A stretch of DNA of 44,797 nucleotides from a virus. Taxonomy: Duplodnaviria > Heunggongvirae > Uroviricota > Caudoviricetes. This document shows positions 3,159 to 25,551 of this stretch, piece by piece. The translations under genes and the position numbers were made by a program. Each line of letters begins with the position of its first letter. Positions within the stretch are counted from its first letter, which is position 1. Below the pieces are notes generated by a model. It made no database searches and had not been told where the DNA came from. It worked only from the letters and a program-made list of their open reading frames with translations. Location of the stretch: the IMG/VR virus record IMGVR_UViG_2568526230_000010; one strand, 5' to 3'.

Positions 3159-5621
3159 TCAATTCCCTGTTAATTGCAAAACTTGCTCTTCCAGCTTTTT
3201 AACCCTGCGTCTCATCATCGCAGATTCCAGAATCAGAGCCTCTTCATAACGGATACCGTAACATTCACCAGCCTCGACGGCTTCGCGTACCAGAACCTTT
3301 GTCTGTATAAGTGGGTAAACTCCTGCAGAATGCTCTTCTTCCGTCACATCCCTGTATTCTGCCGGGGTCTCATTCCACTTGTCATAACAGATAAATGCCA
3401 GTCGTGACACATCTATGCCTTCATTCTGAAATACACTGATAACATGCTGCGCAACTGCACCAAAGTGCCATCTTGCTCCGTCTTTACCTTTCACTTCGAT
3501 CCTGTCAAGGTACTGGTATGAAACCCATTCCACTCTTTCCCATGCGTCCAGTATTTTCTCATCAATAACCTCTGGAGCAGTCTTGAAACGCGCATCGGAC
3601 AGCACCGTAAACGCTGACTGGGTAAATCCCCCCGACCATGCACGACCAGCCAACCCAAGAGAATAAGTATTCGTTGTCGATGGTGTCATGGCTGAATCAG
3701 AAAACTGTATATATTCTGAATTTCCAGTAGATATTCGAATATTTCCATTTATTAGCGACATAGTGCCTTTAGTATTATCACTATTGAATAATTTCAATTG
3801 CGAACTTATACCGCCTCCCACAGCCAGAGATACATCGCCTTCAGCAAGCATTCTGAATTTATCTGCAGAAACAAGCGTCTGGTTAGCAAGGTTAAAATAT
3901 TTAACCCACCATTCAAAACGCCCTGACATAGTCCCAACGTACTGACCAAGCGCAGGGACGTGAACAACATTGCTATTTGTAGTGCCGTCTATACTGGAAA
4001 TACCAGTCACCGCTGATGCAGAACTCAGAATATTATTTCTGTCACCAGGATGTTTAATTTCAACAAAGTTCCTGATACACCCTTCCTCGAAGGTAACCAC
4101 GCCGGAAGAACTATACATGGGGAATATTGACGCATAATTACTGCGTGCAGCATCTAAGAAACGAATGGTTGTAGATGTCTGCAGATCTCCTGATTCATTT
4201 TTCCCATCACACCCAGTCATTAGAATATTACTGGCAATATTATTATTTCCCTGAACGGTGACGCCGTGCGCCTGCTTTGCGTCCGATTCAGAGTAATCAA
4301 CCAGCACATCCGAAATCAGGTTACCAGTCCCCTTGCCAACAACTACTGCGGCGTATTTTGGGTTGTTAGCCATTACACTGCTAATGATATTATTCGTTGG
4401 GGCAGTTTCCGTCTCAGTTCCATTGTAAACAACGTGCTGACACTCTTCACCAATAACATTGCTGACAATGTTATATTTTGCTGCTGTTTTAAGTTCCACT
4501 GCACCAAACTGAGGATAATTTCTGGCTATCACACCATCAATTAGCGTATTTTGCGATGAATCAAAAAGCACACAACCTGCTTTTTTATTATTTGCGAACC
4601 CTAAATACTCTCCTCTTATATCTCTAACAATGTAACCTGACGGAATACCATTATTCGGATAAGCGATCAAGCTAAATCCTGTTCCTCGCGTATTTGTAAA
4701 TCTGATATTTTTAACCGATACATCATGGCCACCTGAAAATGACACCTGGTGTCCCTGCACACTATCATCTGATTTATTTCCCATAATTGTTAGCGTACTA
4801 AGCATGCCACCATCGGGCATGTTAAAAACCAGATGATTACCATCTCTGTCATACTGTTTTATCGTTCCCCCACCTGTTCCGTACAAGCCACAACGTGAAA
4901 GAGAAACTAAAGATGTATTGAATACCCCTTCCGGAACAAAAACACTGCTAAACGAATGTAATGATTTTGTAAAAGCATCCTTGTTATCATTTAAGATTCC
5001 ATTTTGAGCTCCAAAATCCTTAATGCTGACACCATCACGCATCTTATCCTGGAACGTTCTGTATACCGCTCCAGAACCATACTGAATAAACCAACCAAAA
5101 CCACCAATAACTCCGGCGATTGCAGCATCGACATAATTACGCATTGAGCGATTATTTACAGCGTCCTGCTCAAGTGATGGATCGGCAAGGTTAGATATTC
5201 TGTTTTGCTTTGCATCGTAATATTTTGCAAGCAAAGATGGTTTCATCAATGCACGTCTGAACAACCCAAAACATCGCTGGATCAGCATCGTCAGGTAGTC
5301 AAATGCATCCTCATGAACTTCGGGGAAAAATTTTCCCTGATTGCGAAGATCAGTCTCCTGCACCACATCAAGCACACGCTCTATCGTGATTCGCCAGCCA
5401 GCAGCAAGCGGCGACGGAAGAACCACTGCACCGCCACTATAAGTTCCCGCCCCTGTTACCGTATAACCAGCATCCAGCACTAGTTTTGTAACGTTACCGT
5501 TAAGGTCAGACACCTGAACAACCAGGTCGGATTTTTTGAAAATACGGAAGGTATACGGAAATGATGTCGTAACGCCGTTACCTGTGTATTCGTTGTGGTC
5601 AACTTCGGTTGAGACCGTCAT
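3159..5621 (-). CDS. Tailspike with beta-helix and C-terminal intramolecular chaperone (S74-type autoproteolytic) domain
   Basis: 820 aa; conserved podovirus particle-binding N-terminus; long Gly/Asn/Ser/Thr-rich repetitive middle; C-terminal 150 aa ending in a coiled coil resembles endosialidase-type chaperone domains. Confidence 0.8.
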   Translation of the reverse strand: MTVSTEVDHNEYTGNGVTTSFPYTFRIFKKSDLVVQVSDLNGNVTKLVLDAGYTVTGAGTYSGGAVVLPSPLAAGWRITIERVLDVVQETDLRNQGKFFPEVHEDAFDYLTMLIQRCFGLFRRALMKPSLLAKYYDAKQNRISNLADPSLEQDAVNNRSMRNYVDAAIAGVIGGFGWFIQYGSGAVYRTFQDKMRDGVSIKDFGAQNGILNDNKDAFTKSLHSFSSVFVPEGVFNTSLVSLSRCGLYGTGGGTIKQYDRDGNHLVFNMPDGGMLSTLTIMGNKSDDSVQGHQVSFSGGHDVSVKNIRFTNTRGTGFSLIAYPNNGIPSGYIVRDIRGEYLGFANNKKAGCVLFDSSQNTLIDGVIARNYPQFGAVELKTAAKYNIVSNVIGEECQHVVYNGTETETAPTNNIISSVMANNPKYAAVVVGKGTGNLISDVLVDYSESDAKQAHGVTVQGNNNIASNILMTGCDGKNESGDLQTSTTIRFLDAARSNYASIFPMYSSSGVVTFEEGCIRNFVEIKHPGDRNNILSSASAVTGISSIDGTTNSNVVHVPALGQYVGTMSGRFEWWVKYFNLANQTLVSADKFRMLAEGDVSLAVGGGISSQLKLFNSDNTKGTMSLINGNIRISTGNSEYIQFSDSAMTPSTTNTYSLGLAGRAWSGGFTQSAFTVLSDARFKTAPEVIDEKILDAWERVEWVSYQYLDRIEVKGKDGARWHFGAVAQHVISVFQNEGIDVSRLAFICYDKWNETPAEYRDVTEEEHSAGVYPLIQTKVLVREAVEAGECYGIRYEEALILESAMMRRRVKKLEEQVLQLTGN

Positions 5622-5725: not shown

Positions 5726-5740
5726 TTACCTTTCAGGTAA
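5726..5740. promoter_or_regulatory. Operator-like palindrome TTACCTTTCAGGTAA (perfect 6-3-6)
   Basis: Perfect inverted repeat in the divergent region between the tailspike and the accessory island; one of 13 family members. Confidence 0.5.
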
Positions 5741-5777: not shown

Positions 5778-5797
5778 TACTGTATAAATATACAGTT
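5778..5797. promoter_or_regulatory. LexA (SOS) box TACTGTATAAATATACAGTT
   Basis: CTGT-N8-ACAG with an AT-rich spacer, matching the enterobacterial SOS-box consensus at 19 of 20 positions; 21 nt upstream of the ATG at 5818. Confidence 0.7.
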
Positions 5798-5817: not shown

Positions 5818-6075
5818 ATGCAGCAGTATCACTATCCACTGGAAGACGGATTTACCGAAAGGATTCACACGCCGGGAGGCGTCAGGTCACTGGTGGAGGG
5901 ATCGCACTTGATGAAATTACTCCGGGATCTCGATAAGGATGGATTTAATGTCGATGGCCCACTTGCCGAACTGACTGCACTGATTAACTACGTCACCAGC
6001 TCACAGATGTCTATGCAGGATCTGCAAACACATCTCGACTATTGTGCCGAACAATTACGAAAACAAACCAGATAA
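5818..6075 (+). CDS. Small protein homologous to the C-terminal domain of the downstream antirepressor-like protein
   Basis: 85 aa; RBS GGAG 9 nt upstream; IHTPGGVRSLVEGSHLMKLL…MQDLQTHLDY aligns with IHSPSGVLGLTENSLLMNLL…LRDIQTHAEY in the 6889..7608 product. Confidence 0.6.
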   Translation: MQQYHYPLEDGFTERIHTPGGVRSLVEGSHLMKLLRDLDKDGFNVDGPLAELTALINYVTSSQMSMQDLQTHLDYCAEQLRKQTR

Positions 6076-6106
6076 GGTTTGAAATTACCAAATGGAGTGC
6101 TTATAT

Positions 6107-6121
6107 TTACCTTTGCGGTAA
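6107..6121. promoter_or_regulatory. Operator-like palindrome TTACCTTTGCGGTAA inside a hairpin
   Basis: Family member with one mismatch, lying in the loop of the inverted repeat GGAGTGC (6094-6100) / GCACTCC (6131-6137) just after the small-gene stop. Confidence 0.4.
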
Positions 6122-6147
6122 ATTTACATCGCACTCCTCTTGTGCCA

Positions 6148-6240
6148 TAGTAATCGGGCACTGGCAAAATCCAGTGCCGGGATTGGCGTCCCGGATTACT
6201 AGTAGGCGCATACCACGCCAGACGTGGTTTTTTTATGCGT
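6148..6240 (+). ncRNA. Candidate structured small RNA: tRNA-like three-way junction plus intrinsic terminator
   Basis: 8-bp closing stem TAGTAATC/GATTACTA encloses hairpins GGCACTGG-CAAAAT-CCAGTGCC and GGGA-TTGGCG-TCCC, followed by terminator ACCACG-CCAGA-CGTGGT plus T7; no credible ORF on either strand. Confidence 0.4.
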
Positions 6241-6389
6241 ATAGCACAGTCATATCCGAATTATGGTGGGCTGGGCAGGGGCACCGAAAGGTGCGCCGGT
6301 ACCTACTAGGCCGGTACGCCAACCTTGTCCAGTTCACCACCAGCAATTGGCGTTGCGGTGGTGGGTAACTTACTAGTAGAGGTATCGCT

Positions 6390-6896
6390 ATGCCAGGCCA
6401 AAAAATCTCAAACGACGATCTGTATTGGTTAATTTCTAATTCTCCACTCCTTCTTATGCTAAGGCAAGAAAGTGCACCACTGGTCAGTGAATTGATTAGC
6501 TGTAGAAATAGAATGTGGGATGAAGGGGCAGATTTAGATACCAATTTGTTTGATCATCTTATGCAACTAGCAGTCGATAACAAGGCAAAACTACGCTCTG
6601 AATACAACGCTTATCCAGAAATAGCAAAATACCTTAACGCTGAAATACTTGGTGGACCAGGTCAACCAGACCTAAAAACAAAAGATGGTTACCCTGTTGA
6701 GGTGAAGGTAGATACTTTTTCTCCTTCAGCATTAAAACAATTATTAAGGTATATGGATGCTTCTGGCGCAGATTTTGGTTTTGCTTGTGCAAAAACTCTT
6801 TCTGTAAAACTCCCTGAAAACATAAAGTTCATCCAGTTAGATTATAAAGATAATTGCTATTTCGTCGTGAAAGATGGAGGCAATGAAAATGCGTAA
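6390..6896 (+). CDS. Hypothetical protein, AT-rich accessory gene coupled to the antirepressor-like gene
   Basis: 168 aa; RBS GAGGT 5 nt upstream; lower GC than flanking phage genes; its end overlaps the start of the next gene. Confidence 0.55.
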   Translation: MPGQKISNDDLYWLISNSPLLLMLRQESAPLVSELISCRNRMWDEGADLDTNLFDHLMQLAVDNKAKLRSEYNAYPEIAKYLNAEILGGPGQPDLKTKDGYPVEVKVDTFSPSALKQLLRYMDASGADFGFACAKTLSVKLPENIKFIQLDYKDNCYFVVKDGGNENA

Positions 6897-7608
6897 TATA
6901 GCTATTGATAAGTTGCCGATAACAACTCATTGCAACATCCCTGTAATGACTACAGAAATGCTTGCTGATTTGTATGACACAGAACCCAAACTGATTCGTC
7001 AAAACTATCAACGAAATGCAGATCGATTCATTGAGGGAAAACATTGTTTCAAGCTGATAGGCGAAGAATTACGAGCATTTAAGAACGAGTCCTCTCAAAG
7101 AGGTTTGCTTAATATTGCACCAAAAGTAAGTCATCTTTTCTTATGGACCGCTCGCGGTGCAGCACGACATGCGAAAATTCTTGAGACTGAAAAAGCGTGG
7201 GAGGTCTTCGAAAAACTGGAAGATTGCTACTTCGACAGAAAACCCGCAAATGTCAGTGGAGATGTTCGTCTCTCAGGTGGAGCTGATTTATCAAAGGCCA
7301 CTCAGGTAATTGAAAAATTCATGCCCGCCATTATGGAGGCGATCAAGCTGGAAGACAAAAAAGAATACAGTGCCCCACTGAAGCCCGGCTACCGCAGCCT
7401 GATTCATTCTCCGTCTGGTGTTCTCGGCCTGACGGAGAACTCACTGCTGATGAATCTGCTGAACCAGTTACAGGAAGACGGGCACGACGTATCGGGCGCG
7501 GCGGCGGAGCTGACCACCATGTTCTGCTACATCGTCGGTGTGAGCAAATGCCTGCGTGATATCCAGACCCACGCGGAGTACATCAACGACAAGGCAGGGT
7601 TCTTCTGA
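6889..7608 (+). CDS. Antirepressor-like protein with N-terminal ORF6N-type DNA-binding domain
   Basis: N-terminus fits the ORF6N pattern (VMTTEMLADLYDTEPKLIRQNYQRNADRFIEGKHCFKLIGEEL); C-terminal domain is a paralog of the 5818..6075 product. Start placed at the ATG 8 nt after GGAGG; the ORF track starts at 6874. Confidence 0.65.
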   Translation: MRNIAIDKLPITTHCNIPVMTTEMLADLYDTEPKLIRQNYQRNADRFIEGKHCFKLIGEELRAFKNESSQRGLLNIAPKVSHLFLWTARGAARHAKILETEKAWEVFEKLEDCYFDRKPANVSGDVRLSGGADLSKATQVIEKFMPAIMEAIKLEDKKEYSAPLKPGYRSLIHSPSGVLGLTENSLLMNLLNQLQEDGHDVSGAAAELTTMFCYIVGVSKCLRDIQTHAEYINDKAGFF

Positions 7609-7755: not shown

Positions 7756-7935
7756 ATGCGAAACGAAAAATTGCAGATGCGTAGAGCGCAAGCTGCCGCA
7801 AGACGTTCTTTCAATGGAAGCGTAGAGTACGTAAAAGTTACTATGACAAAAGATCACGCAAGTCGCGTATCCCGCGCTTTCTTTGATTCTCGTAACAATA
7901 AGGAAAATTATGAGTTCGTCTGCGTCGCAGAATGA
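7756..7935 (+). CDS. Small basic protein, candidate antitoxin or regulator partner of the YafO-like toxin
   Basis: 59 aa, below the ORF-track cutoff; RBS GAGGT 6 nt upstream; Arg/Lys-rich; its 3' end overlaps the toxin start by 26 nt. No Phd/YefM/YafN-like signature recognised. Confidence 0.35.
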   Translation: MRNEKLQMRRAQAAARRSFNGSVEYVKVTMTKDHASRVSRAFFDSRNNKENYEFVCVAE

Positions 7936-8455
7936 TAAAAATCAAATTGTCAGATATAAGGGTCGAGTGTTGCATACGCAAAATTTCTCGGCCCTTTGTG
8001 CATCTGATCTTGAGCTGAAGAAAGTATCTGATGCCTTTACCCAGTATTGGAAAACGGGATACCATCCATCTCTTGGTAAAGATGCTGCATTTGCTCGTCC
8101 GACAGAAATGCTTAAACTAAATGTCAGGCATACTCATGTCGATAACCAAGACTATATTCCAGAAGATAGTGATAAAAAACACACTGGTAAAAAATCATCT
8201 TGGGATGCATGGAAAAATATAGCGTCTGTACAAGTAAAATGCATACCAACAAGTGATTGCTTTTTAGTTTATTCGGTAAATCACAATCGTGATGCGCTGG
8301 TTATGTTTTTTGTTGACGCAGATGCTCACAACATAACTGAGCAAGAAGAGTTTAAAGAGGAAGCAATCACTATCAGTTATCAATTCTTTGAGAAAACAAA
8401 AACAGAACCAATGCCTTTAGAAGAAGATCTTTTTTCTGATAAATGGAAGGAATAG
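7910..8455 (+). CDS. YafO-family toxin homolog (ribosome-dependent mRNA interferase family) with C-terminal extension
   Basis: Aligns by eye with E. coli YafO as recalled: FTQYWKTGYHPSLGKDAAFARP vs FISYKRDGVLPDIFGRDALYD, LNVRHTHV vs ERVAHIHL, CFLVYSV…ALVMFFV vs AHLVYCQ…AWLLIAI. Start at the ATG with RBS AAGGA; AT-rich; followed by a terminator. Confidence 0.65.
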   Translation: MSSSASQNDKNQIVRYKGRVLHTQNFSALCASDLELKKVSDAFTQYWKTGYHPSLGKDAAFARPTEMLKLNVRHTHVDNQDYIPEDSDKKHTGKKSSWDAWKNIASVQVKCIPTSDCFLVYSVNHNRDALVMFFVDADAHNITEQEEFKEEAITISYQFFEKTKTEPMPLEEDLFSDKWKE

Positions 8456-25474: not shown

Positions 25475-25551
25475 GTGGCATTAGCTCAGTTGGACAGAGC
25501 AACCGCCTTCTAAGCGGTTGGTCGCAGGTTCGAATCCTGCATGCCACGCCA
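25475..25551 (+). tRNA. tRNA-Arg (anticodon UCU), phage-encoded
   Basis: Cloverleaf folded by hand: acceptor GTGGCAT/ATGCCAC, D-stem GCTC/GAGC, anticodon stem ACCGC/GCGGT with loop CTTCTAA, T-arm GCAGG-TTCGAAT-CCTGC, discriminator G and encoded CCA. Acceptor stem differs from host argU as recalled. Confidence 0.85.

Follow-up and report, generated by a model that had tools for sequence, protein, structure and literature searches.

The question raised by this locus is whether a compact, strongly folded RNA located upstream of an antirepressor operon is a regulatory element of its own kind or an overlooked member of a known family. The window, by which we mean the whole stretch of 44,797 nucleotides that was analysed, is an epsilon15/phiV10-like (Uetakevirus-type) prophage of E. 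coli. A sequence-only reading had described the structure as a tRNA-like three-way junction, and had likened it to processed antisense RNAs of immI-type regions without recognizing it as one of them. Our analysis indicates that the region is an unannotated but ordinary copy of the known prophage C4/IsrK antirepressor RNA switch, first described in P1. Each of the two RNAs falls into a family already described, the parts are arranged as in P1, and the understanding of the mechanism is unchanged.

The region is embedded among the following genes:

3159-5621, minus strand: tailspike gene
5818-6075: small ORF of 85 amino acids, phrog_450
Between ORF 5818-6075 and orf168: gap of 314 nt that holds the C4/IsrK region
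6390-6896, plus strand: orf168, the first cistron of the controlled operon (from the ORF list; phrog_18738, unknown function)
6889-7608, plus strand: antirepressor gene with an ORF6N domain (Pfam ORF6N E = 1e-18; PHROG anti-repressor families, best E = 1e-97)

The C4/IsrK region shares 93% identity with phage HEMP4, and with TL-2011b and phiV10 the figure is 84-86%. Positions 6094-6900 are also carried by 22 complete E. coli chromosomes, most of which have exactly this sequence while the others match it at 99% or more, and these same chromosomes have no RNA gene annotation over that interval.

When the entire window was scanned with the Rfam covariance models, three matches exceeded the curated thresholds, and two of these are located in the region of interest. 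The isrK model (RF01394) matches the plus strand at 6158-6234 with 68.1 bits against a gathering score of 50 (E = 1.3e-12), and the C4 antisense RNA model (RF01695) matches the plus strand at 6259-6344 with 76.7 bits against a gathering score of 45 (E = 2.2e-13). The C4 match is full length, covering model positions 1-87. The third match is a tRNA, and nothing else in the window reaches an Rfam gathering score. The earlier comparison with immI-type regions, where antirepressor translation is under the control of a processed antisense RNA, had the right genre, but the statement that the sequence is not recognizably P1 C4 does not survive the Rfam check. The description as tRNA-like is not supported either: ARAGORN and the Rfam tRNA model find nothing at the locus; in the window they find only the tRNA-Arg at 25475. 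This tRNA-Arg gene (anticodon TCT, 25475-25551) is situated inside the prophage.

A third model, c4-a1b1 (RF03163, 'a1, b1 targets of C4 antisense RNA'), is matched at 6145-6197 in a permissive scan with 45.1 bits, which is below its gathering score of 46.7; on P1 itself the same model gives 51.0 bits. The layout that this model describes is present at the locus, wherein a1 occupies the loop of the second hairpin, b1 follows directly 3', and both are complementary to the adjacent C4. The structure flagged at 6148-6240 is an IsrK-type a1/b1 leader, which is a decoy or target and not an antisense RNA. The antisense RNA, C4, sits between the two sets of motifs. The RNA features are as follows:

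6158-6235, plus strand: IsrK-type leader (Rfam isrK), which yields a short RNA of about 78 nt with a1 and b1 if terminated
6183-6189, plus strand: a1, UUGGCGU, in the loop of hairpin 2, at the position annotated a1 in P1
6199-6206, plus strand: b1, CUAGUAGG, single-stranded, between hairpin 2 and the terminator
6206-6240, plus strand: intrinsic terminator with stem 6212-6228 and U7 to 6235, inside a lower stem GCGCAU/AUGCGU
6259-6344, plus strand: C4 antisense RNA (Rfam), with a mature form of 77 nt predicted at 6265-6341 by the register of P1 c4
6302-6309, plus strand: b', CCUACUAG, in the loop of C4 hairpin 2
6316-6322, plus strand: a', ACGCCAA, in the single-stranded joint of C4
6334-6364, plus strand: putative hairpin with a2 at its apex, in which the final 8 nt of mature C4, UCACCACC, form the 5' arm and GGUGGUG the 3' arm
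6347-6353, plus strand: a2, UUGGCGU, at a position that matches P1 a2
6373-6379, plus strand: b2, CUAGUAG, which shares one base with the Shine-Dalgarno (SD) sequence GAGG at 6379-6382

The comparison set comprised 16 phage loci and P1, together with three prophage loci of the orf168 type and five from Stx phages. A C4 match is found in every one of the 16 phage loci and in P1. An isrK match is located about 100 nt upstream of C4 in all 16 phage loci except that of Salmonella phage SW-37, and in P1 the c4-a1b1 model matches at this place. Phage SW-37 (locus L013) has a Gifsy-1-like layout, with C4 and isrJ matches at 1580-1662 and 2317-2391, and its leader falls below the isrK gathering score because of a different loop in hairpin 1. 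Some deposited phages carry CDS calls that lie over the isrK and C4 genes (L009 1288-1971, L010 1416-1961, L012 1131-2273, L014 1563-1736 and L011 1639-1926), under names that include 'Ash family protein', 'putative antirepressor', orf34 and hypothetical proteins. These CDS annotations across the RNA genes are probably over-extended or spurious.

Upstream of the leader there are two promoter-like sites with a palindrome between them:

6079-6107, plus strand: upstream promoter-like site TTGAAA-17-TATATT (10/12 matches in a consensus scan)
6107-6121, between the two promoters: operator-like palindrome TTACC-N5-GGTAA
6123-6151, plus strand: main promoter of the leader/C4 transcript, with -35 TTTACA and a TG-extended -10 CATAGT at 6146-6151 (promoter scan)

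Through the c4-a1b1 model, the -10 element CATAGT aligns with the annotated -10 of the P1 promoter P1c4/P51b. We infer that transcription starts near 6158. The +1 is put at this nucleotide, which is isrK model position 1, because the IsrK paper numbers G28 and G31 within UUGGCG. The upstream promoter-like site is a possible counterpart of P1 P2c4/P51a, a role that is putative; a -10-like element directly before the palindrome also occurs in three of the other loci (L019, L021 and L023).

The palindrome itself is kept at the same place in the orf168-type relatives, and it occupies the position of the C1 operator Oc4/Op51 of P1. There are 16 copies in the window against 0.66 expected, and they are often paired. 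Exact copies are found at 5726, 6107, 7681, 25138, 28283, 32796, 32858, 35145, 35857 and 35919, and six more have one mismatch. To judge from their sequence and distribution, these dispersed copies look like the operator set of a repressor in the style of P1 C1.

When 6148-6240 is folded with RNAfold, the fold that had been described is obtained, comprising an 8-bp outer stem (6148-6155/6194-6201), hairpins of 8 bp and 5 bp, and a terminator. Its predicted energy is -41.8 kcal/mol (z = -4.57), and none of 200 shuffled sequences is as stable. Covariation was scored in 18 loci for motif and ORF statistics, a set that was extended to 25, and in 16 sequences for the outer stem. The two leader hairpins, 6158-6177 and 6178-6193, are conserved in relatives; hairpin 1 has four pairs with compensatory changes and 95.5% of its cells are paired, and hairpin 2 is paired in 97.5%. 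The outer stem, however, is equivocal. Of its cells 74% are paired, but against shuffles its pair counts (386/500) and type counts (244/500) are no better than chance. It is broken in more distant homologs and lies outside both Rfam consensus structures. In addition, the -10 hexamer CATAGT (6146-6151) and the stretch up to about 6158 are overlapped by the 5' arm of this stem (6148-6155).

The 8-bp closing stem, and with it the three-way junction, is therefore doubtful as an RNA structure. It is probably not transcribed from the main promoter, since the 5' arm precedes the inferred start and would be absent from main-promoter RNA, and it could form only in transcripts that start further upstream. 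A third stem is described as sporadic in this family and is missing from many members (Weinberg et al. 2010).

The intrinsic terminator proposed for 6206-6240 is found as a terminator-like site at 6212-6228 followed by a T run. The lower stem that surrounds it (6206-6211/6235-6240) is predicted in 23 of 25 loci with differing sequences. This lower stem pairs across the U tract and therefore forms only in readthrough RNA.

The C4 region is likewise strongly folded (z = -4.29). Its form, a long closing stem around two hairpins, is supported by covariation: over 17 + 5 pairs, 98.9% of cells are paired and 11 of 22 pairs have compensatory changes, and on no measure does any of 500 shuffles do as well. 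An ACC tail after the C4 stem can be read in the sequence. The hairpin with a2 at its apex is predicted in 17 of 18 loci and its inner stems covary. According to the fold predictions, this hairpin would compete with the C4 stem and would be lost after C4 excision.

The two motif pairs that had been spotted in the sequence alone are the functional a and b sites of a C4 system, as is indicated by their P1 positions and by co-variation. Across the 44.8 kb of the window there are just two copies of the octamer TACTAGTA, at 6197 and 6371, against 0.15 expected, and none of 100 shuffles reaches this number. The second copy adjoins the SD sequence, GAGG at 6379-6382, which is 7 nt ahead of the ATG at 6390. 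Similarly, TTGGCG at 6183 is complementary to CGCCAA at 6317. Three parts of the system had been missed, namely a2, the third copy of the hexamer (6347-6353); CCTACTAG at 6302-6309, the reverse complement of the b motif; and the large hairpin structure in which the latter is carried. TACTAGTA recurs because both copies are targets of the same C4 loop, and the copies are not mutual partners. Counts of the core motifs over the whole window are not enriched (CTAGTAG 3 against 1.99 expected, TTGGCGT 11 against 7.45), and the evidence for the sites is their position and co-variation, not motif counts.

For this comparison, intermolecular pairs were taken by anchor-based extraction, as MAFFT misaligned a2 in APSE-1 and P1, and duplex energies were computed from short segments, as RNAduplex on whole RNAs gave meaningless long duplexes. 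In 18 of 18 loci a1 is the reverse complement of a' and is identical to a2. Over 25 loci the a site complements a' in every case across seven alleles, with two loci matching at only 6 of 7 nt at a1. The b' loop has 19 sequences in the 25 loci, and each is matched by its own b1 and b2. Cognate complementarity averages 6.9 nt for b'-b1 and 7.9 nt for b'-b2 compared with 3.7 and 4.3 nt for non-cognate combinations, and none of 20000 permutations does as well. Other alleles are seen in the relatives with orf168, one combination being a = UUGGAAC and b = CUACAAAGG, and b2 adjoins the SD sequence in all of these relatives. Palindromy of the b site is allele-specific, being found in 2 of 25 loci; the b specificity allele present here is new and happens to be palindromic. 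At this locus a':a2 comprises 7 nt, and b':b2 has 7 contiguous bases compared with 8 for b':b1. Since b' pairs over 8 nt with b1 and 7 nt with b2, the decoy b1 may bind C4 better than the target b2 does.

The controlled operon begins with orf168, whose product has no match in Pfam, NCBIfam or PADLOC and no tblastn match in deposited phages. It is without similarity to P1 Icd, and so is not Icd. It represents a small family limited to enterobacterial prophages, always in the same context. The invariant residues are D94, E104-x-K106 and Q117-x-x-x-Y121, and in a profile search they align, weakly (E = 0.038), with the RecB/Cas4 nuclease motifs of PDB 4r5q. On this sequence comparison, orf168 may encode a protein of the PD-(D/E)xK nuclease fold; its AlphaFold model has a pLDDT of 44, too poor for a structure search.

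The antirepressor gene begins, with the ATG at 6889, before orf168 has come to its end, since the last base of the orf168 stop codon is 6896. This 8-nt overlap is the same in relatives, and the start agrees with the PGAP start in an identical E. coli prophage. The protein is unrelated to P1 Ant. Translational coupling, or polarity, between orf168 and the antirepressor gene is assumed from the overlap.

Two further observations concern the surroundings of this operon. A LexA-box-like perfect palindrome, CTGTATAAATATACAG at 5780-5795, is located just upstream of the 85-amino acid ORF at 5818-6075, whose product is 42% identical to the C-terminal 75 residues of Ant (6889-7608). This sequence relationship suggests a second, SOS-controlled mini-antirepressor beside the C4-controlled one. 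Downstream of the antirepressor gene there is a gene for a YafO-family toxin (7883-8455, Pfam E = 9e-6), and TL-2011b has the same gene in the same place.

Given the observed family membership, folds, complementarities and co-variation, the region is quite probably a P1-type immunity-I RNA switch, in which C4 masks the ribosome binding site of the orf168-ant operon and the terminated leader serves as a C4 decoy. Transcription from the main promoter (-10 at 6146-6151) would start near 6158, and the first 78 or so nucleotides would form two hairpins, with a1 in the second loop, followed by b1 and then by the intrinsic terminator. Transcripts that stop there would constitute the short IsrK-type RNA. 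Those that read through would contain the C4 RNA, whose mature form is predicted at 6265-6341 and is presumably released by RNase P as in P1. By analogy with P1 and Gifsy-1, the loop b' and the joint a' of C4 would pair with b2 and a2, ahead of and touching the SD sequence of orf168, and would thereby block ribosome entry. If translation of the antirepressor hangs on that of orf168 through the overlap, the antirepressor would be off and lysogeny would be kept. The short leader could titrate C4 because its a1 and b1 are the same as the mRNA sites, and drawing C4 away from the mRNA would switch the antirepressor on, an action for which IsrK of Gifsy-1 gives the genetic precedent.

For P1, a decoy role of a1 and b1 was put forward by Citron and Schuster in 1990, according to the summary given in Additional file 1 of Weinberg 2010. 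The action of IsrK as a short, Hfq-associated RNA that activates downstream translation in trans has been described only for Gifsy-1, where translation of anrP rises by a factor of more than 100 when the short IsrK is provided in trans (PMC4825925). A processed RNA, STnc1160, arises there from readthrough (PMC4825925), and IsrK and STnc1160 are strongly expressed in Gifsy-1 lysogens in every condition tested. Mutations G28A and G31A in the a1 loop of Gifsy-1 IsrK, and C162U and C159U in a', derepress, and repression is restored when they are combined (PMC4825925). The Gifsy-1 authors themselves favour alternative structures in cis and an ORF in the C4 region over a free C4, and action in cis and in trans may both have a share.

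The palindromic b site of this prophage also admits the reading from which the analysis set out, namely that 6148-6240 is itself a regulatory RNA of about 90 nt that acts on the mRNA through the octamer (b1:b2) and the TTGGCG loop. With TACTAGTA self-complementary at both b1 and b2, a 10-bp b1:b2 duplex is predicted at -12.7 kcal/mol, and when the full leader is folded, its minimum-energy structure includes b1:b2 as a long-range helix. Yet complementarity of at least 8 nt between b1 and b2 is found in only 2 of 25 loci, and elsewhere the two sites are same-sense and unpairable. The CGCCAA partner lies inside the conserved C4 and not in the leader adjacent to the ribosome binding site, the mRNA has a third same-sense copy of the hexamer, and the signal that runs through the whole family is a three-way co-variation centred on C4. 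We therefore consider this reading very unlikely. There is a slim chance that, with the palindromic allele, b1 pairs with b2 at the SD sequence, either as a cis clamp around the terminator and C4 or in trans, in which case the IsrK-type RNA would not only be a decoy but would also repress independently of C4. If direct b1:b2 repression of this kind were true, one short RNA would have two opposite activities, and the switch would be unlike those of P1 and Gifsy-1.

The remaining readings come from the work on Gifsy-1. Under the model published for 'orf45', control is exerted in cis by alternative folds of the mRNA and by a small ORF whose translation carries over to the following gene, and no free C4 is needed. 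An ORF from an AUG in the 5' arm of C4 exists here (6263-6376, 37 codons) and stops inside b2, 13 nt ahead of the ATG at 6390; tagged orf45 is translated in Salmonella, where mutation of its start codon lowers anrP activation (PMC4825925), and hairpins that would form in place of the C4 stem are conserved. The ORF that begins at the conserved AUG, however, spans anything from 8 to 271 codons and so is not conserved, and its stop codon already falls within C4 in 8 of the 18 loci, P1 among them, mostly in the b' loop. Even in the IsrK paper it is the nucleotide sequence and not the amino acid sequence that is conserved (PMC4825925). A P1-like RNase P cut between U6264 and G6265 would destroy the AUG, and the pattern of covariation is that of a structured RNA, all of which makes this model a poor prospect for the locus. 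Perhaps, instead, the chief role of a1 and b1 is not decoy titration but to allow C4 (or Hfq) binding to modulate termination at 6212-6235, as a form of readthrough autoregulation like that of P4 CI RNA at seqA and seqC. The end of b1 is also the start of the lower stem of the terminator (G6206), the terminator resides within an extended helix that is conserved and for which readthrough is a precondition, and the idea was raised by the IsrK authors for STnc1160 (PMC4825925). Their co-expression of STnc1160 nevertheless enhanced the IsrK effect and did not relieve it (PMC4825925), and attenuation leaves a2 and b2 on the ribosome binding site in every locus unexplained. We regard it as unlikely, and it fits the P1-type switch as an added layer, not as an alternative.

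Among known systems, the P1-type switch proposed here is close to immI of P1 and P7 (c4-icd-ant; Citron and Schuster 1990). The P1 record (NC_005856) gives the order operator Oc4, promoters P2c4 and P1c4, a1, b1, the 77-nt c4 RNA, a2, b2, icd and the overlapping ant1, and it annotates b2 as a target of translation repression. The window shares this order of parts, with an operator-like palindrome at the place of Oc4, including the terminator-like hairpin and the overlapping antirepressor gene, as well as the C4 fold and, by register, the predicted length of 77 nt. In both, specificity resides in short a and b motifs that differ between phages. These motifs are CUGUCAA and CACUAAC in P1 and ACGCCAA and CCUACUAG in the window. 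The first cistron in the window encodes an unrelated 168-amino acid protein whereas that of P1 encodes the 73-amino acid Icd, the antirepressor is an ORF6N protein and not a relative of P1 Ant, and the module lies beside the tailspike gene of a podovirus-type, epsilon15-like prophage.

The IsrK-orf45-anrP-isrJ region of Gifsy-1 (Hershko-Shalev et al. 2016, PMC4825925) has a leader of the same family, Rfam isrK. There also, a terminator divides a short RNA from a readthrough mRNA that holds a C4-type structure, the mutations that defined IsrK are at the a1 and a' positions, and the output is an antirepressor. In Gifsy-1, however, the antirepressor gene follows directly, with b2 over its start codon and no orf168-type cistron, and translation of orf45, an ORF conserved neither in the window nor in other loci, is part of the published model. 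No isrJ is found after the antirepressor gene by the Rfam scan of the window. The IsrK paper sets the Gifsy-1 system beside P4 and not beside P1 c4 (PMC4825925).

With the CI RNA of P4 (seqA, seqC) the window shares a small RNA processed from the leader of the operon that it controls, with complementary sites on both sides. P4 CI RNA acts by premature transcription termination, not by masking a ribosome binding site. No P4-type model is matched in the window by the Rfam scan. P22 sar likewise belongs to a podovirus immI region beside the tailspike gene, where this small RNA reduces translation of the antirepressor. It is transcribed from the opposite strand over the ribosome binding site of ant, whereas all elements in the window are on one strand. 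A sar-type RNA was considered as a candidate and rejected, as the Rfam scan gives no sar match and 6094-6389 contains no promoter-like site on the minus strand.

The points in which the locus differs from known systems are its b specificity sequence, its unrelated antirepressor and its non-Icd first cistron. Recognition of a C4/IsrK switch that is missing from the annotation of identical E. coli prophages is mainly of value as a clean-up. The comparison also makes explicit that, in terms of the P1-type system, IsrK of Salmonella is an a1/b1 leader and 'orf45'/STnc1160 corresponds to C4 RNA; in the open-access literature searched, IsrK and C4 are treated separately, and their equivalence is already implicit in Rfam. 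The many alleles of the a and b sites (7 and 19 in 25 loci) show the RNA module to be an immunity cassette that is both portable and addressable. This cassette is joined to unrelated antirepressors and, in the present prophage, also to a nuclease-like first cistron of unknown function.
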